Positions 9,040 through 62,490 of a DNA stretch of 64,000 nucleotides are shown here, piece by piece. The position numbers were made by a program, and so were the translations under genes. How positions within the stretch are numbered: the first letter of the stretch is position 1; the number at the start of each line of letters is the position of its first letter. The notes under the pieces were generated by a model. It had not been told where the DNA came from. It did not search any database and saw only the letters and a program-made list of their open reading frames with translations. The DNA is from a phage. Where the stretch lies: the sequence record PZ445451.1; one strand, 5' to 3'.

Positions 9040-12000
9040 CTAATGACAACTGGCCCATGAGTTACCAACATCGTACCCAGCAGTGAGAGGTACATTAAGA
9101 TTGTAATACTCACCAGCTTTATTAACAGCGATAGATGCTAATTCTCCAGCACGACTGTAGGCTGTAAACCAACCACCTTTCGGAGATTCATGTACGTTCG
9201 CCCAAATCTTGCCAGTACGTTTCTCTTCCTCTTCTTTCCAGGCATTAACTTTATCCAAACATTCTTTATCAATTTTCTTTTGTTCTTCTGGATCATCAAC
9301 TTGAGTCCAACCTAAAGATTCTTTAGAGAACCATTTAAAATGCACCAGATCACGAGTTACTTCAAGTTGTGCTTCATCGTGATATGCAATCATTTGTTGA
9401 ACGAATGACTTATTTTTCCAGTCATCAACAAAAAAGTCAACAGCTAATCCTTCTTCTTCGATAAGATCGTCGTAGATAACCATTGCTCTTTTTGCACAAA
9501 TAACACCACCACTCTGGAACAGAGAGTTAAGTATTGCGTGTGCAGATCGTGTAGGTACTTTTCTACCATCAATACCGAGAATGTATTTCTTACCTGTTTT
9601 AACCCAAAAGTCATGCAGACGTTCTTTAAGAAGCGCAAGAGGTTTTGCAGCTTCCCAGAAAGCATCGTATACAAGCTGTCCTGTATACATATCACTACCT
9701 ATAGTTTTTGCTACTTTTGCAGCTTGAGCACCATAAGTAATACCATACTTAACAGATTTAGCAGGGCTTCGTTCAAACTTACGACCAATAGTGTCAGAAA
9801 TACGTCGAGCCATCATTGTATGAACATCATTAGGTTTTTCCAATAATAGAGCATTACAATATTCGTGTGGTTCCTGCTCGTACCGCCAACAATTCCCTGT
9901 AATCGTGATGCAGTCTTTCTGACGCATAACCCATGTACCGAGTTCTGTTTGTGGACACCAAACATCTTCTACACCCCATTCTTCAATAGTCAGACTTTGA
10001 ACAGGGATGTGAGAGCGGTTAGCCAACGTTGCCACTTTTACTTTCTGGTCTTTCGTATTGAAGGCTACAGAAATATTACCCCCATGAACCAGGTATGAGG
10101 CAGTTAAGGCTGCTTCAAAAAGTTCTCCTGGGTTCTGCGCCCAGCGCCAAACAGGTTTTTGTTTATGTTTGTGCCAGTAACCATCCGCAATCAAAAAACC
10201 TTCCAAGAAAGCCACACGCTCGGCATGAGACATATTAACTACACGTTCTACCCACGGAACATCCCATTTACCTTGTTGAACAGAAGTTAAACTATTTACT
10301 TGATCTTGTTCCATGTTAAATGGAGCATTACAAATAATGTTATCTCCTGTGCAAAGCTCGGCAGTTGTTCTGACTTTAGGCACATAAGTATTCCCTGTAC
10401 TACGAGTATTAACATACCAACGGTGATCTGCTGTTGCACGATAAGTATGGGATTTTCCTTTAATCTCAAACGTCTTACTATTTTTATAGAAGACCTTACC
10501 TTTTACTTTAGTCCATTCTTTAAGTCCTGTTTCTGGGTTATATCCTAAGATTTCATCCCCTTCTTGTAGATCGTGATAACCAACCCAACCTTTACGGGTT
10601 AGTGCTTGTGCATCCATAGGTACACAGTAGTGTGATTCTATTTTTGCCTCAAGAGAATCAAAGTCATAACCAATTTGGAAGTATTTTGGAACTTCTACAC
10701 CAAATAAGTTACGCATTTCATATCCGTACAGAGATGTTACACGTGGGATATTTGCTACTAACCTATGTTTCATACGAGATGTAGCTGCATCACACGTTGC
10801 AGCAGGAGTTGGTATACGACCATCAGCCCTTACTGCTGCCAGATAACCTTTATCGTAATCCTCTTCATCTTCTTCCCAATCAGCACCACCACCTAGAATA
10901 GAGTTCCTACGGTGTTTATACGTAAGATACTGCACAATCTGCGTAGCATAAGGAAACTTTTCACCCAGTGCTTCCAAGTTAGGACAAATATCTTTCTCTT
11001 GCCCTTTTGTAAAGGAAGGGTTCGTAAGCACTTTAACACCACGACCTTTAGCTTTAGCAATACGATCTCTTAGTTTCCATTCCAAAGTTTCTGGTGTGCA
11101 CTCCAGATGATCACATCTGTCCTGGCAGAAGTTAGATGCTAACGTTTGATCAACATAGTCACGAATAGCTTTCTCCATTTGTGCTTCATCTTTCTTAATC
11201 TTAGTGCCAGATTTAAGAGTGATATCTTTATCTTTGTATTCAGATGGACTCCAACCTAAACCAACTAACCAGTTTTTAATATGTGTAGTGTCGTCTAAAG
11301 TAGCAGGTACTGTAGGATCACAAATAGGTTCTTCTGCTGGAATAGGGAGTTTAAACTCTTTACCTAAAGCAAATAACCACCAACCATCTTCTTTTTGTAC
11401 AAGTTCACCAGAATGTTTCTCTGCAAACTTTATCATGTTACTTGAAGGTTCACCATTCTTTTTAAACTGTAGTTTAGGTGGAATGAATGATTTCAAATAA
11501 CCTTTGGTAGCAGGTTTAGGAGGTAGCACAGGTTCTGCCTCTAAACGACATGCTTCCATTCGAGCATCCAGATCACGAATATTATCTTCTGCTTGTTTCA
11601 TATTGAAAGCAAAGCCACGGTGCTCTTGACGTGTAATAATATCAGCTACACGTTGTTCTAAGTTAAATGGTTCAGACCACTTATTATAATCACCCCACTC
11701 TTCCATCAAATAACGGAACACTGCGGTGTTAGCTTTGTTATCGTAAATACAGTAATACAGCATATCTGCTGCAAATGTTTTAAATCTTTCAGTTTCAGGG
11801 ATGTTTTTTCTAAAATCAATTTTAACATCCCCTCCAGCTTTCTTAGATAACTCTGCCAGACTATGACCACCGAAGCGATCAGGGTTTAGTGTCTTACTTA
11901 AGATCATAGTATCACAAATTTCAATGTTACTATTACCCCAAGTATTGTACTTAATACTGTAGTTGAGTTTAAAAAATAATTTAATTGCCAGTAAGTCGAA

Positions 12001-12354
12001 GTTAATGATGTTGTGTCCAACTACTTTGGTAATTTTATAGTTTGAATTACCTTTAAATTTACCTGTTCCATTTACAAAATCAGGAAAATCTTTAAGAGGG
12101 AAATGGGTATATTCTAAATGCTCATATTCCTCCAATCGGTATTCATACTTTCCGTCAGTCTCAATATACGGACGACCATCGAAAAGATATTTATCACCAT
12201 CATGGAAAGCAATAATCTCTCCAGTATCATGACTTTCGCACACAATACAGTGCATTGCAAAACTATCTTTTAAACGATATGGACTTGCCAAGTAATCTAC
12301 ACTTTCGTCATTAAGCAAGTTGTTACTTTCAATGTCGAAAGTAAAAGCTCCCAT
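9040..12354 (-). CDS. DNA polymerase family A with 3'-5' exonuclease domain, interrupted by an intein
   Basis: Motif A GYDFDSLEAKIESHY, motif B RSPAKSVKYGITYG, motif C AYHDE; AAGGAGG RBS; 245-residue insert between motifs A and B. Confidence 0.9.
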   Translation of the reverse strand: MGAFTFDIESNNLLNDESVDYLASPYRLKDSFAMHCIVCESHDTGEIIAFHDGDKYLFDGRPYIETDGKYEYRLEEYEHLEYTHFPLKDFPDFVNGTGKFKGNSNYKITKVVGHNIINFDLLAIKLFFKLNYSIKYNTWGNSNIEICDTMILSKTLNPDRFGGHSLAELSKKAGGDVKIDFRKNIPETERFKTFAADMLYYCIYDNKANTAVFRYLMEEWGDYNKWSEPFNLEQRVADIITRQEHRGFAFNMKQAEDNIRDLDARMEACRLEAEPVLPPKPATKGYLKSFIPPKLQFKKNGEPSSNMIKFAEKHSGELVQKEDGWWLFALGKEFKLPIPAEEPICDPTVPATLDDTTHIKNWLVGLGWSPSEYKDKDITLKSGTKIKKDEAQMEKAIRDYVDQTLASNFCQDRCDHLECTPETLEWKLRDRIAKAKGRGVKVLTNPSFTKGQEKDICPNLEALGEKFPYATQIVQYLTYKHRRNSILGGGADWEEDEEDYDKGYLAAVRADGRIPTPAATCDAATSRMKHRLVANIPRVTSLYGYEMRNLFGVEVPKYFQIGYDFDSLEAKIESHYCVPMDAQALTRKGWVGYHDLQEGDEILGYNPETGLKEWTKVKGKVFYKNSKTFEIKGKSHTYRATADHRWYVNTRSTGNTYVPKVRTTAELCTGDNIICNAPFNMEQDQVNSLTSVQQGKWDVPWVERVVNMSHAERVAFLEGFLIADGYWHKHKQKPVWRWAQNPGELFEAALTASYLVHGGNISVAFNTKDQKVKVATLANRSHIPVQSLTIEEWGVEDVWCPQTELGTWVMRQKDCITITGNCWRYEQEPHEYCNALLLEKPNDVHTMMARRISDTIGRKFERSPAKSVKYGITYGAQAAKVAKTIGSDMYTGQLVYDAFWEAAKPLALLKERLHDFWVKTGKKYILGIDGRKVPTRSAHAILNSLFQSGGVICAKRAMVIYDDLIEEEGLAVDFFVDDWKNKSFVQQMIAYHDEAQLEVTRDLVHFKWFSKESLGWTQVDDPEEQKKIDKECLDKVNAWKEEEEKRTGKIWANVHESPKGGWFTAYSRAGELASIAVNKAGEYYNLNVPLTAGYDVGNSWASCH
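9892..10626 (-). mobile_element. Intein in DNA polymerase with LAGLIDADG-like homing-endonuclease motif
   Basis: Starts with Cys right after motif A, TADH block B, LEGFLIADGY motif, ends ...ITITGN followed by Cys; removal restores normal A-to-B spacing. Confidence 0.65.
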
Positions 12355-35617: not shown

Positions 35618-38392
35618 TTAGTTTATCAGTTTATTTATGTCTGGTAAAAGATTTATTTCACCTAAGAAATCACCTTCACCTTCCTCTAGCCAACTCTCAT
35701 ATGCTTGTGCATGATTATAGTTACCATCAAAAGAATCTGCAACAAATTTTTCTACAGTTTTTCGAGATGTGCCAGCGCCAAATACACCAAGTTTAATACT
35801 ATTGATCGGTAAAGTGGTGCTTGTTGGTACTTTCTCTGTTGCAACACGGTTGATATCTATAATCTCCTGTACGGTTGTGTTCCATTGTAAGCATTTAACA
35901 CAACGGGTATGCGCTACATACAGTAGGTTTCGCTCTGCCTCTTCCAGTCCTACCCATTCACCAGTTTTTTTATCATAATTGGAAGGAAAATCATTAGCAA
36001 CAATAACCTGATCCCACTCCAAACCTTTAGACTTGTGTGCTGTAGTCAATGTGACTTTTGCTGTAGGAGAATTTCTATGCGTTCTAAGTGTATGTGCTAT
36101 AGTGTTTGCCTTGCCAGAAACTACGATGTTTAACAAGCGTTTAGCATCTGGATCAGCCTCTGCACACTCAACAAATTCATTCCAGTCTGCGTAAGGTAAT
36201 ACAGTTTCATGTTTTACTTTCTCAATATCTCCTCTCCGAAGAGCATTAACACTATCTACCATAGAGATAAAATCCCTGGTATCTACGTTAATAATAATTT
36301 CTTCCCCATCTGCAATACGATCCATTGCCTCCATAAGCAAGGTTAAATTCTTGCGAAAGATGATAGTGTAAGGTTTTGTATAGTCTACAACATCTGATTT
36401 GTAGCTACCTACTACAGTATCAAAGCCTTTACCAACCAAAGGATGACGCAAAGGTTCTTTATCGCTTAAAATCATATTGGCAATGTTTGCCACTTTGGGG
36501 CCAAAACGGAAGCAAGCAGTTAATGGAAGCTCTGCCCCATACTTAGCTGTTTCAATCATCATATTAGAGCTACCTCTAAATTGATAAATGCAGTTGTGGC
36601 TAAGAATTTCATTGCCAAAGAAGTTAGCAGTATCCTCTACTTCAATATCATAATAGATACCCTCACTATCTACAATGTCCACAATCTCTTCTGCCGTTAC
36701 AGTATCACCATCTTTTACCAACACAGACATGCCTTTAAACAAACCCGCTGCCGGAATTAAGTTATATTTGGCACTGTTCACAGAGGACATGCATTCTTTT
36801 AAAGATGCAAACGGAACTATTTCAAGGATCTTTTGTGCAAAACTCAATGCTTCACGATAAGAATTGAAATATTTACGTACACGGTAACGACCTTCCAATT
36901 TAGCAGCACTTACGCTTACACCTGCTTTAATCAGTGAAGAATAGATCGGCATTTCACTTTCTGTCCACTCAAAACTAACTTGTGTTCCTTTACAACCTTG
37001 TGCTCGCAAAGTCACTGTTAGCATTTTTCTTTCATCTACTGCACAATTGATGCTGTGCCAGTGTGGATAAGCAAAATGATAATCTTTATCCTCTAAAAGT
37101 TTAAAACCATTTTGTCCGAATTGTTCAAAGATGTTATTGATCCTTTCTTGATTAATGCCGCGTGAACTTGCTTCAAATACACAAGTAGGAATGCCATATT
37201 GTAAACTGTATGCCATTTCTTTTTCCATAGCAGCTTCACGGTTTTCAACAATATCCAACACCCATAATTTCTGTGCTTTTTCAGAACGTGTACGTTGCCC
37301 CAGTTTAGAAAAACCTTCTTTATCATCGAATTTGTTAGTGATCCCTACTCGGAAACCTAAATCTTTCCTCCACATTAGGTATACCACCATCTGATCATCT
37401 TTCAGAACATAGGATGAAGCCCAAATACGATGGTTATGTGTCATATCTAAAGTTTTACCTGTGGCAGTAATAATATTCCTACCTTTTGTACGTGTAGATA
37501 AAGTCTTATTTGTTACTTTTCTAAATGTAATTTTACCATTAGAATAAGACTCTACCTTATCACCGATTTGTAGGTCTTTCATTGTAACCTGACCATTCTC
37601 GGTATTAAGTACCGTGTTTTCCGACACACATTGGAATTCATCGCCCACTACCACAATTTGTTTTGCAGATTTAGCATTTCGCAGAATAGACAAGAATGCA
37701 GGGTTAACATCCTGGAATTCATCACCAAAAATAATGTCATAACCAAGATCAGCACCTGATAACTCAAACAATTTTACATAGGTGTCATGCGTCATCAAAG
37801 TATCTGTGTTAGGATCAATGCGCTCTCGCCACAATTGTTTTGCATACTTAACTACTTCTGTAATTAGTTTGTGTTCGTTAATACCTTTTCTTTTAATATC
37901 TGCAAGATGTACACCAGGGAAATGTTTACGGCTGATAAAAGGATCATCCGAAAATTCAAACTTACCTACGGTTTGCTTGATCATTAAACCAATCATAGCA
38001 CGAGTTAAAAGTGTTTTCCCTCGTTTATCAATAAGATTATTAATCTTAAATTTCTTTGCTATCTCACTACCTGTACCTGCAACGTTAACATACTGTCCTT
38101 CTGGTCGTGACAGTTTTGCACGTAAACGATGATCCAGGAATTGATAGCAAATGGAATGCAATGTACGGCATTCTACATTTGGTGGCATCTTACGCCGTGC
38201 TTCTTCTGCCATGCTTTTATTGAAAGCTAAGTAAAGAATGCGATCTTCTGTACTGTTAGCCAGCAAATAAAGTGTTGACGTTTTGCCTGATCCAGATTTA
38301 GCTTGGATAGTTAAAAAACGATGGTCTGGAAAAGCCTCCTTAATAGCTGTTTGCTCTTCTGTTGGAGTAAAACTCAACTCTTTCTTAGCCAT
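35618..38392 (-). CDS. UvrD/Rep-family (SF1) DNA helicase interrupted by an intein
   Basis: Walker A AKSGSGKT, motif II IIFGDEFQD, motif III split as VVVGDEFQ / CIYQFRGSS by a 346-residue insert; start set at ATG after AGAGAGG. Confidence 0.85.
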   Translation of the reverse strand: MAKKELSFTPTEEQTAIKEAFPDHRFLTIQAKSGSGKTSTLYLLANSTEDRILYLAFNKSMAEEARRKMPPNVECRTLHSICYQFLDHRLRAKLSRPEGQYVNVAGTGSEIAKKFKINNLIDKRGKTLLTRAMIGLMIKQTVGKFEFSDDPFISRKHFPGVHLADIKRKGINEHKLITEVVKYAKQLWRERIDPNTDTLMTHDTYVKLFELSGADLGYDIIFGDEFQDVNPAFLSILRNAKSAKQIVVVGDEFQCVSENTVLNTENGQVTMKDLQIGDKVESYSNGKITFRKVTNKTLSTRTKGRNIITATGKTLDMTHNHRIWASSYVLKDDQMVVYLMWRKDLGFRVGITNKFDDKEGFSKLGQRTRSEKAQKLWVLDIVENREAAMEKEMAYSLQYGIPTCVFEASSRGINQERINNIFEQFGQNGFKLLEDKDYHFAYPHWHSINCAVDERKMLTVTLRAQGCKGTQVSFEWTESEMPIYSSLIKAGVSVSAAKLEGRYRVRKYFNSYREALSFAQKILEIVPFASLKECMSSVNSAKYNLIPAAGLFKGMSVLVKDGDTVTAEEIVDIVDSEGIYYDIEVEDTANFFGNEILSHNCIYQFRGSSNMMIETAKYGAELPLTACFRFGPKVANIANMILSDKEPLRHPLVGKGFDTVVGSYKSDVVDYTKPYTIIFRKNLTLLMEAMDRIADGEEIIINVDTRDFISMVDSVNALRRGDIEKVKHETVLPYADWNEFVECAEADPDAKRLLNIVVSGKANTIAHTLRTHRNSPTAKVTLTTAHKSKGLEWDQVIVANDFPSNYDKKTGEWVGLEEAERNLLYVAHTRCVKCLQWNTTVQEIIDINRVATEKVPTSTTLPINSIKLGVFGAGTSRKTVEKFVADSFDGNYNHAQAYESWLEEGEGDFLGEINLLPDINKLIN
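36593..37630 (-). mobile_element. Intein in helicase motif III
   Basis: Begins CVSENTVLN, block B THNH, ends YYDIEVEDTANFFGNEILSHN followed by Cys; excision rebuilds canonical GDxxQ-IYxFRG. Confidence 0.65.
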
Positions 38393-38393
38393 T

Positions 38394-38870
38394 TCAACCT
38401 CTCTTAATTTGTTTAACAAGCATAGGAACAAAATCTCGTTTTAAAATTTGTTCAATAATGTGATCAGGTAGCTGTTGGAAATTATAATTAAAAGCTACTG
38501 TCTCACCTTTAGGTGTTTCTACCCGCACATATAACATGTTACGAAGTTTATCCACTTGTGCTGTATATTCTAAACCACGTAATTGATGCATTGCAAACAT
38601 CAAATCATCAGGTTCAGTTTGGAATCTATCACTTGTCTGCATCAAGGATAAGGTAAAAGGTAGATTTTCCCTAAGAGCTACCTTCTTAGGCACTAATGAA
38701 GGGAAATACTCCCCAATAACTTCCTGTGTAAGCTGAATACACTCTTTTTCAAGCTGGTTTTGTTCCTTGAGTTCACAAACACTTTTTTGTAAAGTGTTAA
38801 CCTCTTTTTGCAAGGCTGCTAGTTGAGCATTTAACTTTCTTTTTTGATTACGACCAAAACGTTTAGACAT
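38394..38870 (-). CDS. Hypothetical protein with N-terminal coiled coil
   Basis: 158 aa ORF. Confidence 0.5.
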   Translation of the reverse strand: MSKRFGRNQKRKLNAQLAALQKEVNTLQKSVCELKEQNQLEKECIQLTQEVIGEYFPSLVPKKVALRENLPFTLSLMQTSDRFQTEPDDLMFAMHQLRGLEYTAQVDKLRNMLYVRVETPKGETVAFNYNFQQLPDHIIEQILKRDFVPMLVKQIKRG

Positions 38871-46732: not shown

Positions 46733-47860
46733 ATGAAATACACGATTTATGGTGATATTGTAAGTGTAAATAAAGATATGGGCGTGGAATCTAACTATCT
46801 TCCACCTGGATTCTATACTGTTAGTCGTGATCCCCTTGGCAATTATTTTTTAAGCCGTGGTAATCTGACAGGTGTACCGGATGTTCTGTATGGTGAAACA
46901 GAAAAACGAGCAAATCACGTTATTCGTACATTCCATCGCCGGAGTGCACAAGGTAAAAATACAGGCTTGCTTCTGACAGGAACTAAGGGCAGTGGTAAAA
47001 CTATGTTAGCCAAACTCATTAGTCGTGACCTTGTAGAAGAAGGTATTCCAACTATTATGGTTACTCAAGCCTACAGTGATGCTAATTTCATTGAACTTAT
47101 TAGCAAGATCACAGACAAAGCAGTCATTATTTTTGACGAGTTTGATAAAGTATATGAGAAGAAACAAGATCAAGAAGCACTTCTCACTTTATTAGATGGT
47201 ACTGGCAGTGGTAATAAACTGTTTATTCTGACTAAAAACAGTGGTTTTATCTCTGAATTCTTTTTAAATCGTCCTAGTCGTGTGTTTTATAATTTTAATT
47301 ATGATAAAATCTCACTAGAAACTATGATTGACTATTTAGATAAAAACCTGGATAACAAAGCACACTTTGATAATTTCCAAAGACTTTGGGATGTAAGTTT
47401 AGAGTTGTCCTTTGATGTGATCCAAGGTATAGTAGAAGAACTTAATTTCTATCCTGATTTATCCTTTAAAGAATGCATCTCTATGATGGGCGTTTCTTTG
47501 GGTGGTGGTAATAAATGGGATATCAGCAGCGTTGTTATTAATGGAAAACTTCAGAAAGTTAGCTGGGTATCTAGTTGGCATAACTTCACACCTGCAATCT
47601 TTTTAGGTGGTTCGTGCACACTAGACGTGTACTTGTCATCTCCAAGTGATGCAGACTCTAAAGAAGCCCTTGCTAATAGCTCTTACGTGGTTTTTGATGA
47701 TGAAGGCGATGCTCGAATTCCATTGAATGCGACAAAAATGAAAGCAGATCTTATTACAGGCGGTAAAATAGTTGTGTTTAGTGATGATCCAGAAGATTCT
47801 TTCCGTATTGTTCTGGAACCAACTATCACCAATGGTGCAACTTTGGCAAGTGTGTTTTAA
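46733..47860 (+). CDS. P-loop NTPase (AAA-like), paralog of 29835-30995
   Basis: Walker A GTKGSGKT, Walker B IIFDEFDK, LLTLLDG and NRPSRVFY blocks shared with the minus-strand paralog. Confidence 0.6.
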   Translation: MKYTIYGDIVSVNKDMGVESNYLPPGFYTVSRDPLGNYFLSRGNLTGVPDVLYGETEKRANHVIRTFHRRSAQGKNTGLLLTGTKGSGKTMLAKLISRDLVEEGIPTIMVTQAYSDANFIELISKITDKAVIIFDEFDKVYEKKQDQEALLTLLDGTGSGNKLFILTKNSGFISEFFLNRPSRVFYNFNYDKISLETMIDYLDKNLDNKAHFDNFQRLWDVSLELSFDVIQGIVEELNFYPDLSFKECISMMGVSLGGGNKWDISSVVINGKLQKVSWVSSWHNFTPAIFLGGSCTLDVYLSSPSDADSKEALANSSYVVFDDEGDARIPLNATKMKADLITGGKIVVFSDDPEDSFRIVLEPTITNGATLASVF

Positions 47861-47934: not shown

Positions 47935-49338
47935 ATGACAGCACCAAAATCATGGGAACAATATAAAGAAGAATTAACACCCCTTGCTAAAAATCACAAT
48001 ATTCAAATCCTGGGTTATGTTGGGGAATGGAAAGGGAGCAAGACTAAACTTAAACTATCTTGCCCTGATCATGGAGAGTGGGAAAGTACCACAATCGCTA
48101 AATTTAAAACTAAAGGCAGTAAATGTTGCCCCGATTGCAATGGTCGTAGAAAAGTAACAGAAGAAAAGGAATGTATTTCCCTTGTTGATATTGCTAAAGA
48201 AAGAGGGTTTACTTTTATAGGTCTTGCCGAGGAGTGGCGAGGTGTGCGAACAAAAATTCGCATAGTTTGCCCTAAACATGGAGAGTGGAACACCACGCAC
48301 ATTATTGATTTTAGGAATGGACGTGGTTGTCCTATCTGTTCTGGTAAGAAGCCGTTAACATGGGAAACAGAATTACCGATCTTGGCAGAGATAGCACAGA
48401 AGAAGGGGTATCAGGTGTTAGGGTACGTTGGAAAATGGAAAGGGTGTTACACAAAACTTGATTTGTTGTGTCATTGTGGGAACAGATGGGATACTACAAG
48501 TATTAACAGTTTTAAAAATGGCAATGGTTGTCCTTTATGTAGGAGGGAGAATATAAGGAAGGCAAAAACAATATCCGACGATCAACATATTGCAGATTTC
48601 TTTTCTACAGGGAAATTTAAGGAAGGCACTATCTTCACCAATACAGGGAAACGTAGTTGTAGTAAATCAGGAGATATTATCTGGATGATCGAGTGTCCTG
48701 TTTGCTCCCATGATGAATATGTTCAAGCAGGTGTTTGCGATGGTAAATTTTACTCTAGAGGAAGTGATCTTAAACAAGGAAGTATCCCTTGCCGCTGTGC
48801 AACTAGCTATCATTATACAGAAAATCAGATTACCTACAAAGTGAGAAAGGAAATAGAAAAGAAAGGGTATGTCTGGGTAGATTGGATTACCAAACCATCT
48901 TCTATAGGTAAGTTTAAATATCTTTGTCTTGTACATGGGGAGCAGATAGGGAGTGCTCGTAACTTATTAACTCAAGGGTGTGGGTGTTCACAGTGTGCTG
49001 GTCATAGTCAACAGCAATTATATATTAATATTGTTAAAGATAATGATATTACAGTTGCTCTTAAGTTTGGCATAGCTAAAGATAGTGACAGGCGATTAAA
49101 CAGTCAAAATAGCCGTAATCTGTTTTTTATGGAGCGTATTTGTTTATATGATTTTAGTACAGTGAAACAGTGTAAGGCTGCTGAAAGAGCTATAAAGAAA
49201 AAATTAAAAACTGGTATCTTAACAGCAAGAGAGTTGAAAGATGGTTATACAGAAACAGTAAGTGTTTCTGATTTGGAAAATCTTCAAAAAATTATTACAC
49301 AATATGGTGGCAAATTAGTATACAGTAAGGAGATGTAA
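47935..49338 (+). CDS. Tandem zinc-ribbon repeat protein with C-terminal T5orf172/GIY-YIG-like domain
   Basis: At least four repeats of CPxHGEW...F(K/R)xGxGCPxC; C-terminus QQQLYINIVKDNDITVALKFGIAKDSDRRLNSQNSRNL resembles T5orf172-type domain. Confidence 0.45.
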   Translation: MTAPKSWEQYKEELTPLAKNHNIQILGYVGEWKGSKTKLKLSCPDHGEWESTTIAKFKTKGSKCCPDCNGRRKVTEEKECISLVDIAKERGFTFIGLAEEWRGVRTKIRIVCPKHGEWNTTHIIDFRNGRGCPICSGKKPLTWETELPILAEIAQKKGYQVLGYVGKWKGCYTKLDLLCHCGNRWDTTSINSFKNGNGCPLCRRENIRKAKTISDDQHIADFFSTGKFKEGTIFTNTGKRSCSKSGDIIWMIECPVCSHDEYVQAGVCDGKFYSRGSDLKQGSIPCRCATSYHYTENQITYKVRKEIEKKGYVWVDWITKPSSIGKFKYLCLVHGEQIGSARNLLTQGCGCSQCAGHSQQQLYINIVKDNDITVALKFGIAKDSDRRLNSQNSRNLFFMERICLYDFSTVKQCKAAERAIKKKLKTGILTARELKDGYTETVSVSDLENLQKIITQYGGKLVYSKEM

Positions 49339-49890
49339 ATGCGGATTACTGATAAGTATGTGTTCTTCTTTTCAGCAAAAGATGAATTTAGCAACTGGTA
49401 TCTATCATCTTTTATTGAACCTTTAGCACCCAAGTATAATAATTCTATTACAAGTTCTGTTGAATTTACTTGTGTGGAACAATATATGATGTGGAGAAAA
49501 GCATGTTTGTTTTATGATTACAGTATTGCATCTTCTATTTTAACCGGAGATCTAAGATATACAGGAGAAAAAGAACAAGCATATTATAAGCGACTAGGCA
49601 GATTAGTTAAAGATTATGATGAAGATACCTGGACTTCTTTACGGGAGAAGATTGTCAAACGTGGTTTGTATCTTAAATACACACAAAATGAAGATCTCAA
49701 AAATAAACTTATAGCCTACGCAGATAAGGAGTTCGTAGAGGCAAGCCCCTATGATTCTATTTATGGTATCAAAATGGGGATGTGGGATCGTGATGTGGAA
49801 AATAAGGACTGTTGGAAAGGACAAAATCTTTTAGGAAAATGGCATACAGACCTTGCTGTTTATCTAAAAACACAATCTGATATTTCCTGA
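49339..49890 (+). CDS. NADAR (YbiA-like) domain protein
   Basis: FFFSAKDEFSNWY, CVEQYMMWRKACLF and DSIYGIK...GQNLLGKWHTDL align with the conserved YbiA blocks. Confidence 0.6.
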   Translation: MRITDKYVFFFSAKDEFSNWYLSSFIEPLAPKYNNSITSSVEFTCVEQYMMWRKACLFYDYSIASSILTGDLRYTGEKEQAYYKRLGRLVKDYDEDTWTSLREKIVKRGLYLKYTQNEDLKNKLIAYADKEFVEASPYDSIYGIKMGMWDRDVENKDCWKGQNLLGKWHTDLAVYLKTQSDIS

Positions 49891-50103
49891 TATTTTGAAA
49901 ATTTTTATTTTTATAAAAAGGGGTGTGGGTTTCATGTACGGAAATTCACCCTCTGCACAGTATATCCAGAGTAAGTAGTATTCTACACCCTGTTAATAAA
50001 GTATTTAATTTGTTTGTTGGACTATGGTATCTGATCTTTAAAAGGCATACTATCTCTTAACTACTACTTATAACAAAACAGTAAAATCATTTTTATAAAA
50101 AGG

Positions 50104-50310
50104 ACAAAATTATTTAAAGTTTTTACAGATTTTTGGATACAAATTTTGAAAATGAAAAGTTCAAGTTTGGTCAAAATTATTTAAAGTTTTTGTACGTATT
50201 TCTATCCAGATTTTGAAAATGAAAACTTCAATTTTTTAAAAATTCCCCAGTTTATTTAAAGTTTTTTTGCCTTTTTCCGTAGAAAAATCAAAAATGAAAA
50301 GTTCAATTTC
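50104..50310. repeat. Three AT-rich tandem repeat units of about 65-80 bp
   Basis: Each unit has TATTTAAAGTTTTT (50112, 50177, 50253) and TTTTGAAAATGAAAA(G/C)TTCAA (50144, 50211, about 50290); the latter holds the inverted pair TTGAA...TTCAA. Confidence 0.6.
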
Positions 50311-50326
50311 GTGTTTTTATAGGTGT

Positions 50327-50445
50327 GCGTATGATAATCATTCTCATTTGTAAATGAGAATCATTATCATTTAATTATGTAAGTGATAATCATTCTCAGT
50401 AAGAGAATGAGAATCATTAGCAAATGAGAATTTTTCTCATTTAGA
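50327..50445. promoter_or_regulatory. Cluster of Fur-box-like palindromes
   Basis: GTATGATAATCATTCTCATTT-GTA-AATGAGAATCATTATC near-perfect palindrome; GATAATCATTCTCA...GAGAATGAGAATCATTA; AATGAGAA-TTT-TTCTCATT; 13-15 of 19 identity to GATAATGATAATCATTATC. Confidence 0.45.
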
Positions 50446-50703
50446 GAATAACGCGCAGGGGCGGTGTTTGTCTCGCGCTCCCGTGTCCCCTCGCCATACA
50501 ATAAGAATAGCATAACCAACAACAAAAGCAAGCGATTATTTTTATCTTTACATTTCTTTACAAATTTATTTTAGACGAGCTACCGGCGATCAACCTTCCA
50601 ACCAGTGCCCCCTGGTATGTTAGCCCCGCCTTTACGCCGTGGGGGTGGCGTTTCCTCTTCTGTATGTAAAACAGTATAAGCCCGATCCCTGGGCTTGTCA
50701 AGA

Positions 50704-50970
50704 TTATTTTTTGTTTTCTTGCCAGGAAAGGACACCTAACCAAAAATACATATCGCCCCGCGCCCCTGGCGGGATCTTGCTTTCCCCGCCGCCACTGCAA
50801 GCCCATAAATAACCATCAGCGAACGGATCAAAATGTTCTATCTCTTCCACCTTATGATCGCCCAGGTTGAGAACGGTTTCAATCTTTAAGCCCGTTGCGC
50901 TTGCTACCTGGTGCACCGTGCCGCCTTGCCAGCCCAATGAGTGCATGAGATGTAAAGGAGTATTTGTCAT
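50704..50970 (-). CDS. Hypothetical protein inside GC-rich island (possible moron)
   Basis: 88 aa minus-strand ORF with RBS-like AAAGAAAGGG; surrounding 0.6 kb is visibly more GC-rich than flanks. Confidence 0.4.
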   Translation of the reverse strand: MTNTPLHLMHSLGWQGGTVHQVASATGLKIETVLNLGDHKVEEIEHFDPFADGYLWACSGGGESKIPPGARGDMYFWLGVLSWQENKK

Positions 50971-51078
50971 GGTATCGCCCTTTCTTTGATGTGCGCCCTG
51001 GTTGGCGCGGTAGAAAGATAATAGCCGTTTCCTTTATAGATAGCAAGCAAAAAAGAAATGAAAAAAGATTAAAAATGG

Positions 51079-51107
51079 TTGACGTTACCAGGATAATAAC
51101 ATATTAT
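51079..51107 (+). promoter_or_regulatory. sigma70-like promoter TTGACG-17-TATTAT
   Basis: Good -35/-10 match with 17 bp spacer upstream of the early gene array. Confidence 0.45.
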
Positions 51108-60903: not shown

Positions 60904-61106
60904 ACCTAAATAAAGATGATAGCTTTTACCTATCAAAAACGTTCACCGAAAAAAGTGAATAGATCGCGGTATCGAGCTAATCAAGGAGCAGATGAACAAC
61001 CATACCATGAAGATCATAAGGCGCTTACAACGTGTTTTAGACCGCTTATTTTTAATTTCTCAATGTAACTATCGGGCAAAAACAGCCTTTTTCTTGTCTT
61101 TCCTCT

Positions 61107-61182
61107 TAAATGATAATCATTCTTATTTATAGCTGATTATTTATGCAATAAACTGCATAATGCAATAATGATAATCATTCTT
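61107..61182. promoter_or_regulatory. Two Fur-box-like sites
   Basis: AAATGATAATCATTCTTA (61108-61125) and AATAATGATAATCATTCTT (61164-61182); the latter matches the Fur consensus at 16 of 19 positions. Confidence 0.45.
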
Positions 61183-61573
61183 AACTTATGACCATCTAAC
61201 CTATAAAATAATAAGTTATCTAACTAAATTAAAACTAATTATCCCACCTTTATTTATAACTTACTTTTACTATCTCATTGATAACCTTATATTAAACAAC
61301 AATAACCAATATAAATCATTACTAAGCTAACTATAATCTATCTAACCCTTAAAACTATAACTATAATCTATCGAATTGTTGCACAAAGTAACTATTAAAT
61401 TGTTAGTAACTTTACTAAATAATTAATATCCTATCTATTTATGATCTAATCTTTACCTTACTATCTATTACCTAAATAACCATTTCATACAGAAATTATT
61501 TCATACAATAACTATAACAAGAAATATAATTCGCAAGCGTATCATTAGCAGCCTATGCCGGACACATAGGCGG

Positions 61574-61719
61574 CTAATAATAACGCAACTACACACCCCA
61601 CATAATAACCATCACCGATAGTTATTATTTGTGCTTATGTAGCTTGCAACAATTGCAAGCGCAACAATATACATGGTATATTGTATCCCTTACATTGTTG
61701 CGGTGCGTTATTATTAGCT
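61574..61719. repeat. Long nested imperfect palindrome
   Basis: Outer arms GCTAATAATAACGC (61574-61587) and GCGTTATTATTAGC (61706-61719); inner CGCAACAATA / CATTGTTGCG; GCTTGCAA-CAA-TTGCAAGC at 61643-61661. Confidence 0.6.
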
Positions 61720-62045
61720 AATGTTTGGAACATTGGCTATAATATAAGCTACATATAATAAGCTATACAATAATAAACATAATGAATAATGACACTGATG
61801 ATCATAATGCGCCACCTTCCAGGGGGCGCTATGTGAACACAAAGAAATCTTTCTTGTCAAGAAAAATATCACCATTATTGCGCAAAATTATTTATATCTG
61901 AACAGATGATTTTTCATACTATTGCCCCCTATAGTATCCCTATTTGTTGTAATGTATTCCCCTATTTGTTGAGCCTACTCTCTTAAAAGCGCAATAAATT
62001 AGAATTATCTTGATTTTTAGGTAGTTTTATAGTATAGAAAATATG

Positions 62046-62064
62046 CAAATGATAATCATTATCA
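62046..62064. promoter_or_regulatory. Fur-box-like site
   Basis: GCAAATGATAATCATTATC matches GATAATGATAATCATTATC at 17 of 19 positions. Confidence 0.5.
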
Positions 62065-62240
62065 GCTATCTTCCACAGGTGGCACTATTTCACGCCAGAT
62101 CATTTCATTTGGCAAGGTGTATATAGATGTTTAGAAATGCCAAGCCATTGATTTACTTAGAATTTATCTGTTTTGTTGTGAGTAGTGCCTTTCTTGCTCA
62201 GAAAATAATCAAAAGTCTTATAAGTCATTGAATGATAATG

Positions 62241-62259
62241 CAAATGATAATTATTCTCA
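62241..62259. promoter_or_regulatory. Fur-box-like site
   Basis: GCAAATGATAATTATTCTC, 15 of 19 match; preceded by another AATGATAAT half-site at 62232-62240. Confidence 0.4.
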
Positions 62260-62380
62260 TTGATATTTGAGGGGGACGGTCGGCAGAAATCGGGGGCGCT
62301 AAAAATCGCGTTAAGCACCTCTCGCAAGCGAGCAGTATTTTGCGGCAAGTTATTGATATTATTGGCTTTACGCTTATGGA

Positions 62381-62490
62381 AAGGGGGTGTGTCGAAATAA
62401 ATCGGGTATACCGGAAAATTTTTGTGGCATAGATATTTATTTGTCTATATTATGTACAAAGGGGTGTGTTAAAAATAATAGGTATATATA
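62381..62490. repeat. Two copies of a roughly 30 bp direct repeat
   Basis: AAAGGGGGTGTGTCGAAATAAATCGGGTATA (62381-62411) and AAAGGGGTGTGTTAAAAATAATAGGTATAT (62459-62488), about 80 percent identical. Confidence 0.5.

Follow-up and report, generated by a model that had tools for sequence, protein, structure and literature searches.

What does an AT-rich array of repeats do in a gap between genes, at the edge of the early region of a phage genome? The question is raised by a 64,000-nucleotide stretch of phage DNA (record PZ445451.1), here called the window, whose numbering is used throughout. A first-pass annotation had described an iteron-like tandem repeat array in this window, and had suggested a replication origin, a packaging site or a binding array for a phage protein as its possible roles. 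The array, at 50089-50309, is a single-copy, selected and geometrically constrained cis element of six short boxes, which probably binds a protein and might, more tentatively, take part in the start of phage DNA replication.

The segment 49300-51300 is 100% identical to Escherichia phage PaulScherrer (Bas60, MZ501100.1), a phi92-like phage of the genus Justusliebigvirus, Stephanstirmvirinae (subtracting 32675 from the position in that record gives the position in the window). The array lies in a non-coding gap, after the plus-strand NADAR gene, which ends at 49890, and before small sigma-70-driven genes from about 51079 on, a site that corresponds to the upstream edge of the early-gene block; the gap beside Fur-like palindromes (50327-50443) that had been described earlier was therefore borne out. 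Together with other modules in a fixed order, the array makes up a conserved locus of about 0.85 kb that is free of open reading frames (ORFs). No tRNA genes were found in the window, no Rfam family reached the gathering threshold in it, and nothing meaningful was detected at E <= 10 in 49850-51100. Prior annotation records the repeats merely as 'repeat_region' in phages alia and muut, uncommented in their paper, and the literature searched contained no paper on these repeats, nor on the origin or transcriptome of the group.

Repeat units and boxes

The three units proposed in the first-pass annotation were confirmed as direct repeats, composed of 79-nt copies (50089-50167, 50156-50234 and 50231-50309) that start 67 and then 75 bp apart and are 71-73% identical over 79 nt; Tandem Repeats Finder (TRF) gave the array a period of 67 and a score of 185. 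Each unit consists of a box A (TTATTTAAAGTTTTT), a variable spacer whose nucleotides differ from unit to unit, and a box B (TTTTGAAAATGAAAAGTTCAA). The units can be delimited as follows, with variable box positions counted among ten Justusliebigvirus genomes:

50105-50171, plus strand: repeat unit 1, box A at 50110-50124 (TTATTTAAAGTTTTT) and box B at 50143-50164 (ATTTTGAAAATGAAAAGTTCAA); 0 variable box positions
50172-50246, plus strand: repeat unit 2, box A at 50177-50191, box B at 50210-50231, then the linker AAAAATTCCCCAGT; 0 variable box positions
50247-50310, plus strand: repeat unit 3, box A at 50252-50266 and box B at 50285-50306 (ATCAAAAATGAAAAGTTCAA); one variable position, in box B

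Box A is exact at 50110, 50177 and 50252, and box B (ATTTTGAAAATGAAAAGTTCAA) starts 33 bp past the start of box A in all three units (50143, 50210 and 50285), its stretch AAAATGAAAAGTTCAA being found at 50149, 50216 and 50291 with 0, 1 and 0 mismatches, respectively. Exact boxes A and B were confined to the array when 146.6 kb of the 150.4-kb genome were scanned, and a search of the 64 kb for box A with up to two mismatches returned one further site (2 mismatches) against 1.4 expected. Six boxes in three units thus lie on one strand of a single locus, as in iteron arrays, which comprise at least three direct repeats in the same orientation. The array has an A+T content of 78.6%, and only two 100-bp segments of the 64 kb are less stable than 50047-50146, as would suit an AT-rich unwinding element. 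A dispersed class of promoters, either sigma-70 or phage-specific, was rejected, since the boxes are unique in the 146.6 kb and the units show no conserved -35/-10 pair.

Two other details of the first-pass annotation fared less well. The partial fourth unit at about 49890 is reduced to an 11-mer ATTTTGAAAAT (49892-49902) and a 15-mer ATTTTTATAAAAAGG (49907, again at 50089), without box A. The inverted TTGAA/TTCAA pairs do exist, as TTGAA-N9-TTCAA in units 1 and 2 and in a degenerate form in unit 3 (TCAAA...TTCAA), but a role as the functional core is not supported, since they are unconserved outside Justusliebigvirus: box B of coliphage phAPEC8 and of Klebsiella relatives reads AAAATTTAAAGTTT, a box A-like sequence without the pair, which makes the pair a peculiarity of Justusliebigvirus. 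As for coding potential, the annotated 36-aa ORF bas60_0112, which overlaps unit 1, is probably spurious, because a 1-nt indel among the relatives falls inside it.

Conservation of the array across related phages

Is the array maintained by selection? Within the genus, the share of variable columns in the alignment of the ten genomes reached its highest rate in the locus, 14.0%, in the non-coding DNA upstream of the array (49891-50090), and amounted to 4.5% in the array, 12.9% in the palindrome cluster, 3.6% in a GC-rich element further downstream, and 8.5% and 12.4% in the flanking coding sequence. Inside the array itself, 1 of 111 box columns was variable as opposed to 9 of 110 non-box columns (Fisher one-sided p = 0.009; 10 genomes). 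By this pattern, the boxes are under purifying selection while the spacers drift.

The same unit anatomy was found in Justusliebigvirus, in Phapecoctavirus and in Klebsiella relatives. The gap of the Klebsiella phages KP2025 and phi1_175008 and of phAPEC8 aligns at only 65-68% identity or partially, and their units read TATTTAAA(G/C)TTT, about 22 variable nucleotides and AAAAnnAAAAtTTnAAAnTTT, with starts 66/67 and then 75 bp apart. Even the linker between units 2 and 3, AAAAATTCCCCAGT, is kept in KP2025 and phi1_175008. Since the relatives share the anatomy, the spacing and even this linker, the array has been inherited as a whole. The first-pass annotation had named, as grounds for abandoning its proposal, repeats missing from related phages together with a lack of protein binding or replication activity; arrays are present in all three of these groups.

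More distant phages keep the geometry with other sequences. In the Vequintavirinae PVP-SE1, CR3, phiTE, Av-05 and BIS47, as well as in several uncultivated genomes, three units of the form GGTTCTCGATCG...CGTATT, unrelated in sequence, occupy the equivalent position, where the rV5-like phage W70 carries four units of GAGAACTTGAGAGGTTTTTC (unit motif GAGAACTTGAGAGG). The distance that separates the first and third units comes to 141-142 bp in 13 of the 16 loci, made up of 66/67+75 bp in the Stephanstirmvirinae and of 74/75+67 or 78+63 bp in the Vequintavirinae; the exceptions are phAPEC8 (138 bp, with a degenerate middle unit), W70 (148 bp) and KP13-16, which has two units. In all cases, the core of the GC-rich element lies 480-508 bp downstream of the start of the array. 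A scan of IMG/VR with the core motif retrieved only 13 loci, mostly from the same isolates. Because phages of the same host use different boxes in the same geometry, the binding partner would be a co-evolving phage protein and not a host protein.

A functionless tandem duplication, or simply low-complexity AT-rich DNA, could be invoked for repeats in such an AT-rich non-coding region, where short two-copy matches often arise by chance. However, a single variable position among 111 in the boxes, as compared to the 14% of the neighbouring non-coding DNA, makes this explanation hardly credible, as does the persistence of the unit anatomy and of the 141-142-bp span in genera and subfamilies whose gap sequences otherwise show little or no alignment.

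Regarding the sequence records of these phages, it can be mentioned that the 'Campylobacter phage' records A150, C3, A145 and A110a (UNVERIFIED) are 95-96% identical to this group of E. coli phages, and are probably mislabelled or contaminants.

A probable protein-binding array and a possible replication origin

As an element that is single-copy, selected and constrained in its geometry, the array is probably a protein-binding array, the sole reading that accounts for all the data, although the binding is inferred. The earlier proposal of an iteron-like binding array for a phage protein is the one favoured, on the strength of the single copy, the selected boxes, the conserved geometry and a sequence that is specific to each lineage in phages with a shared host. 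Regarding the purpose of such binding, a role at a replication origin, where the array would serve a phage-encoded protein, ranks first, because the locus is unique, non-coding and easily melted, a conserved promoter is aimed at the array, and the replisome is of the T7/T5 type (PolA-family polymerase and gp4-like primase-helicase), with no recognisable initiator. Both the protein and the outcome are inferred, and the origin is proposed here tentatively, as a real possibility.

In such a pathway, a sequence-specific protein, most likely encoded by the phage, would dock on the six boxes within about 220 bp and build a higher-order nucleoprotein complex. The bound protein would distort or open the weakly paired DNA of the array, and the region would be activated or primed by transcription that starts at the adjacent promoter, in the manner of the T7 primary origin or of T4 oriF/oriG. 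The outcome would be the start of phage DNA replication.

Several observations weigh against this proposal, so that the origin suggested in the first-pass annotation is sustained in part, by the AT-rich and easily melted DNA and by the conserved promoter pointing in, but not by the spacing, the host-factor sites or the gene neighbourhood. The spacings of 67 and 75 bp correspond to 6.4 and 7.1 turns and the distance from box A to box B is about 46 bp, none of them multiples of the helical repeat, unlike in classical iterons. Neither conserved DnaA boxes (TTWTNCACA) nor conserved IHF sites (WATCAANNNNTTR) were found in 11 lineages. No cognate initiator of the Rep, O, DnaA or Orc type was found adjoining the array, although genes elsewhere in the genome may encode one. 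The model of an AAA+ ATPase encoded 2.3 kb upstream (predicted local distance difference test, pLDDT, 84.8) matches unfoldases of the classical clade (Bcs1, proteasomal Rpt, FtsH, NSF and p97), and its gene is syntenic only in Justusliebigvirus and KP2025. The 88-aa product of bas60_0113, downstream of the array, gave a confident 5-helix model with no significant structural match and no recognisable DNA-binding fold. The turn of the GC skew coincides with the switch in transcription direction, at about 45 kb, and not with the array. The non-coding stretch at 61.2-61.5 kb, beside the terminal repeat, is even richer in A+T and less stable than the array and, on composition alone, is an equally good origin candidate. 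Finally, none of the literature searched reported data on replication, binding or transcripts for a member of the group.

The search for the binding protein considered this AAA+ ATPase (46733-47860) as an initiator of the Orc, DnaA or DnaC kind, a candidate that was rejected, having only weak, sub-threshold matches to Hda, IstB and Orc; no binder of the array was identified among the ATPase and bas60_0113. Other repeat-based systems were likewise discarded. CRISPR-like or Racr arrays (identical 28-37-nt repeats with spacers of about 32 nt) and tandem antitoxin RNAs of about 36 nt do not fit the anatomy of the units, which have no Rfam match; ToxI-like or pseudo-ToxI repeats, known from phiTE, gave no match; and the analogies with resolvase res sites and with centromeres (sopC/parS) were set aside because there is no cognate gene adjacent.

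Between the ATPase and NADAR genes lies the gene of a 467-aa protein (47935-49338) with four CapR-homology repeats, a T5orf172 domain and a PHROG 681 endonuclease assignment, whose identity among relatives is 77-84% as against 98-100% for its neighbours, as expected of a mobile endonuclease. Inteins are present, according to the record annotation, in the genes of the DNA polymerase and of a UvrD/Rep helicase (9040-12354 and 35618-38431, minus strand).

Genome ends and packaging

Could the array instead be a packaging recognition site, either pac or a binding array for the terminase small subunit, or a genome terminus? Terminase recognition sites are typically arrays of direct repeats, such as the R sites of lambda cosB, the pac site of phage ICP1 lies in a 1.3-kb ORF-free region (PMC7145576), and in the record of the Klebsiella phage phi1_175008 the first unit comes 86 bp after the start. 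This record start is arbitrary, however, since the record is declared circular, and PhageTerm has assigned short direct terminal repeats to two members of the group, of 342 bp in the close relative BME3 (PMC12210895) and of 317 bp in FKP3. The homologue of the BME3 repeat was located in the window:

62045-62385, plus strand: homologue of the BME3 terminal repeat, the physical genome end (94.4% identity over 342 bp)

Given that the terminal repeat, as defined in BME3, maps 11.7 kb from the array, the packaging site of the first-pass annotation is disfavoured, and a packaging or terminus role is very improbable. From array to terminal repeat there are 11.7-12.3 kb, about 8% of a genome of 148-150 kb, occupied by a block of small plus-strand genes, each with a sigma-70-like promoter.

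Immediately ahead of the terminal repeat, the ORF-free stretch 61100-61810 has about 76% A+T and contains the two least stable 100-bp segments of the 64 kb, which makes the 61.1-61.8 kb stretch an alternative candidate for an origin or for a packaging signal. Many short direct repeats (e.g., TAACTATAATCTATC) are also seen in this stretch. The BME3 record itself (PP239276) has an odd arrangement: the annotated repeat lies 73 nt from the record end, the opening 269 nt show part of the repeat in reverse complement, and the sequence past the repeat jumps to the equivalent of window position 61557.

Flanking modules and a regulatory alternative

The remaining modules of the locus, which follow in the order TGATATTT motifs, spacer of about 200 bp, array, Fur-box-like palindromes, GC-rich element, minus-strand sigma-70 promoter and bas60_0113, are:

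49877-49895, plus strand: two TGATATTT motifs (TRF period 10), which include the stop codon of the preceding gene and mark where the locus begins on the left
49896-50088, no strand: fast-evolving non-coding spacer between the TGATATTT motifs and the array
50327-50443, no strand: four or five Fur-box-like palindromes of the AATGAGAATCATTCTCATT type, as inverted and direct repeats spaced 23-29 bp
50451-50672, no strand: GC-rich conserved non-coding element of about 220 bp, with the core GTTAGCCCCGCCTTTACGCCGTGGGG
50673-50701, minus strand: predicted sigma-70-type promoter TTGACA-17-TATACT, an 11/12 match to the consensus, with a GC hairpin in its spacer
50704-50970, minus strand: bas60_0113, 88 aa, syntenic with the locus in nearly all lineages (tblastn), a family of 15 clusters

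One to four TGATATTT motifs were found on the plus strand, 685-813 bp upstream of the GC-rich core, in 10 of the 11 lineages scanned. The TGA of TGATATTT(G) is the stop codon of the upstream gene, whichever gene that is.

The GC-rich element is much better conserved than the DNA around it, with a nucleotide identity of 75-90% in both Stephanstirmvirinae and Vequintavirinae (237 phage records), and has neither an Rfam match nor a plausible ORF. Its minus-strand fold is no more stable than those of shuffled sequences (z = -0.42); in RNAalifold the covariation term is about 0, with one clear compensatory pair, and the G-U pairs fit the plus strand. The element may be a sense/antisense RNA pair, since it sits between the minus-strand sigma-70 promoter and a possible Fur-gated plus-strand promoter. 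In Raoultella phage Ro1, an insertion some 800 bp upstream of the core GTTAGCCCCGCC interrupts the element after ...CCGGCGAT and carries a 197-aa HNH endonuclease (PHROG 953, E = 8e-79) and a diverged duplicate of the 3' half of the element. Such an insertion indicates that the element is a homing target.

The predicted minus-strand promoter points leftward, through the GC-rich element, at the palindromes and the array. Its hexamers are near consensus in every lineage read (TTGACA..TATAAT in KP2025, TTGCAA..TATAGT in PVP-SE1 and TTGACA..CATAAT in W70), and the GC hairpin of its spacer (AAGCCCAGGGATCGGGCTT) varies in sequence between lineages. This hairpin also resembles the terminator of bas60_0113.

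These modules allow a different role to be considered, that of an upstream regulatory array whose boxes would be recognised by an activator or repressor of the phage, or would work as bent A-tract DNA, with Fur at the palindromes, and whose targets would be the GC-rich element and/or the first early genes. Such regulation would agree with the position of the array, which is always upstream of the GC-rich unit in one orientation and at a fixed distance, and with the several small putative transcription factors of the early block. In the Vequintavirinae, moreover, a plus-strand promoter-like site, TTGAAT-N18-(C/T)AGAAT, directly precedes the GC-rich element and has the last palindrome in its spacer. 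The few predicted helices contain G-U pairs compatible with a plus-strand RNA ending at a terminator-like hairpin (50634-50661). Nevertheless, counted from the putative start site, the array lies 130-350 bp upstream, on the far side of the palindromes, a long way for activation in bacteria; in PaulScherrer and phAPEC8 the plus-strand -35 hexamer is poor, and promoter-like hexamers are not conserved inside the units on either strand. Altogether, an upstream regulatory array is considered unlikely.

Fur-box-like palindromes and the edge of the early region

A further question is related to the palindromes that flank the array without being part of it. Four of them have 3-4 mismatches to the 19-bp E. 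coli Fur consensus, palindromes of the AATGAGAATCATTCTCATT type were found at the locus in all lineages, in one to five copies, and Fur-box-like sites with up to five mismatches numbered 39 as compared to 7.6 in shuffled sequences. The terminal repeat starts exactly at one such palindrome (62045; 2 mismatches to the consensus). The Fur-box-like clusters (50327-50443, 61106-61194, 62045-62063 and 62234-62270) fall into two non-coding loci, one at either border of the early-gene block. In the literature, no paper was found that connects Fur with these phages.

By blastn, the palindromes have matches in the T5-like phages Gostya9, SSP1, PHZ191, KEY and EC122. In Gostya9, they sit in an untranslated region of about 2 kb past the pre-early genes, together with 65-bp direct repeats, a 14-bp repeat family and paired DnaA boxes. 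This region corresponds in T5 to Repeat Region 3, rich in direct repeats and palindromes, more conserved than the neighbouring genes and regarded as a probable injection stop signal, the paired DnaA boxes being universal in T5-like phages (Davison, 10.1101/866236).

The resemblance suggests that the block of array and palindromes could be a nucleoprotein boundary element of the early region, pausing or organising DNA entry, or delimiting early transcription, and not a starting point of replication. As in T5, a large and conserved ORF-free region of direct repeats and palindromes lies inward from the end by about 8% of the genome, where a block of small early genes has its inner border, with near-identical AATGAGAATCATTCTCATT palindromes and direct repeats of about 65 bp nearby; the genes between array and terminal repeat have their own sigma-70-like promoters and are all transcribed toward the end, where the terminal repeat also starts with a Fur-like box. 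The T5 region, in contrast, belongs to a 10-kb terminal repeat and carries eight paired DnaA boxes set in inverted repeats, whereas here the repeat measures 342 bp and lies elsewhere and such boxes are absent, and the units of about 70 bp in PaulScherrer have no sequence similarity to the T5 repeats. Two-step DNA entry is not known for the group of PaulScherrer, never having been reported for phi92- or rV5-like phages. A boundary function is, on this analogy, improbable as the explanation of the array, while the parallel with T5 in position and in shared palindromes is real.

A broader and more speculative proposal, which must be considered quite unlikely, is that the array, the Fur-box-like palindromes and the GC-rich element form an as yet unrecognised checkpoint at the edge of the early region, which phi92-, rV5- and T5-like enterobacterial phages would have in common, each in its own version. 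Host Fur would then act as an architectural or sensing factor, and a phage protein would wrap the 141-142-bp array, gating DNA entry, early transcription or the start of replication. If that were the case, the two-step programme of T5 would have relatives in two other large phage groups.

In any case, phi92-, phAPEC8- and rV5-like phages are widely isolated and present in therapy cocktails and in the BASEL reference collection, and the work yields for them a compact cis-acting locus with exact coordinates, six candidate boxes and a 141-142-bp rule for three units across two subfamilies. The boxes could be used as bait for the binding protein, and a search for a copy-number peak would best begin at this locus. 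The sequence link to the untranslated repeat region of T5 offers a comparative route into the injection-stop problem, and for phage engineering the locus should be left intact and not taken as an insertion site.

Comparison with known origins and control regions

Returning to the probable protein-binding array and its possible role as an origin, three kinds of known systems can be compared with the locus. The 1.3-kb ORF-free region of ICP1, which holds both the pac site and the late origin (PMC7145576), resembles the locus as an extended control region devoid of ORFs, in a large lytic myovirus whose replication proteins are related; unlike in PaulScherrer, where the terminus lies elsewhere, it coincides with the start of packaging.

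A second comparison concerns origins that depend on transcription. The T7 primary origin consists of promoters 1.1A/B and an AT-rich region, and T4 oriF/oriG of a promoter and a downstream unwinding element. The locus shares with them a strong promoter aimed into an AT-rich segment of low stability, as well as a T7/T5-type replisome without an obvious initiator. Those origins, on the other hand, need no sequence-specific box arrays, and in PaulScherrer about 360 bp of GC-rich element and palindromes separate the predicted promoter from the array, and read-through into the array is hypothetical.

Finally, iterons such as the O-binding repeats of the lambda ori, P1 oriR and the oriV of pSC101, R6K and RK2 differ from the array in their length of 17-22 bp, as compared to bipartite units of about 70 bp in PaulScherrer, in their helically phased spacing, in an adjacent or identifiable initiator gene of the Rep or O type, and in their DnaA/IHF sites. 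What both have in common are direct repeats in the same orientation, a unique locus, an AT-rich melting segment, boxes under purifying selection and a lineage-specific sequence, as expected for co-evolution with a cognate protein. The array can be described as an iteron-like binding element with unusual bipartite units of about 70 bp and a fixed span of 141-142 bp.

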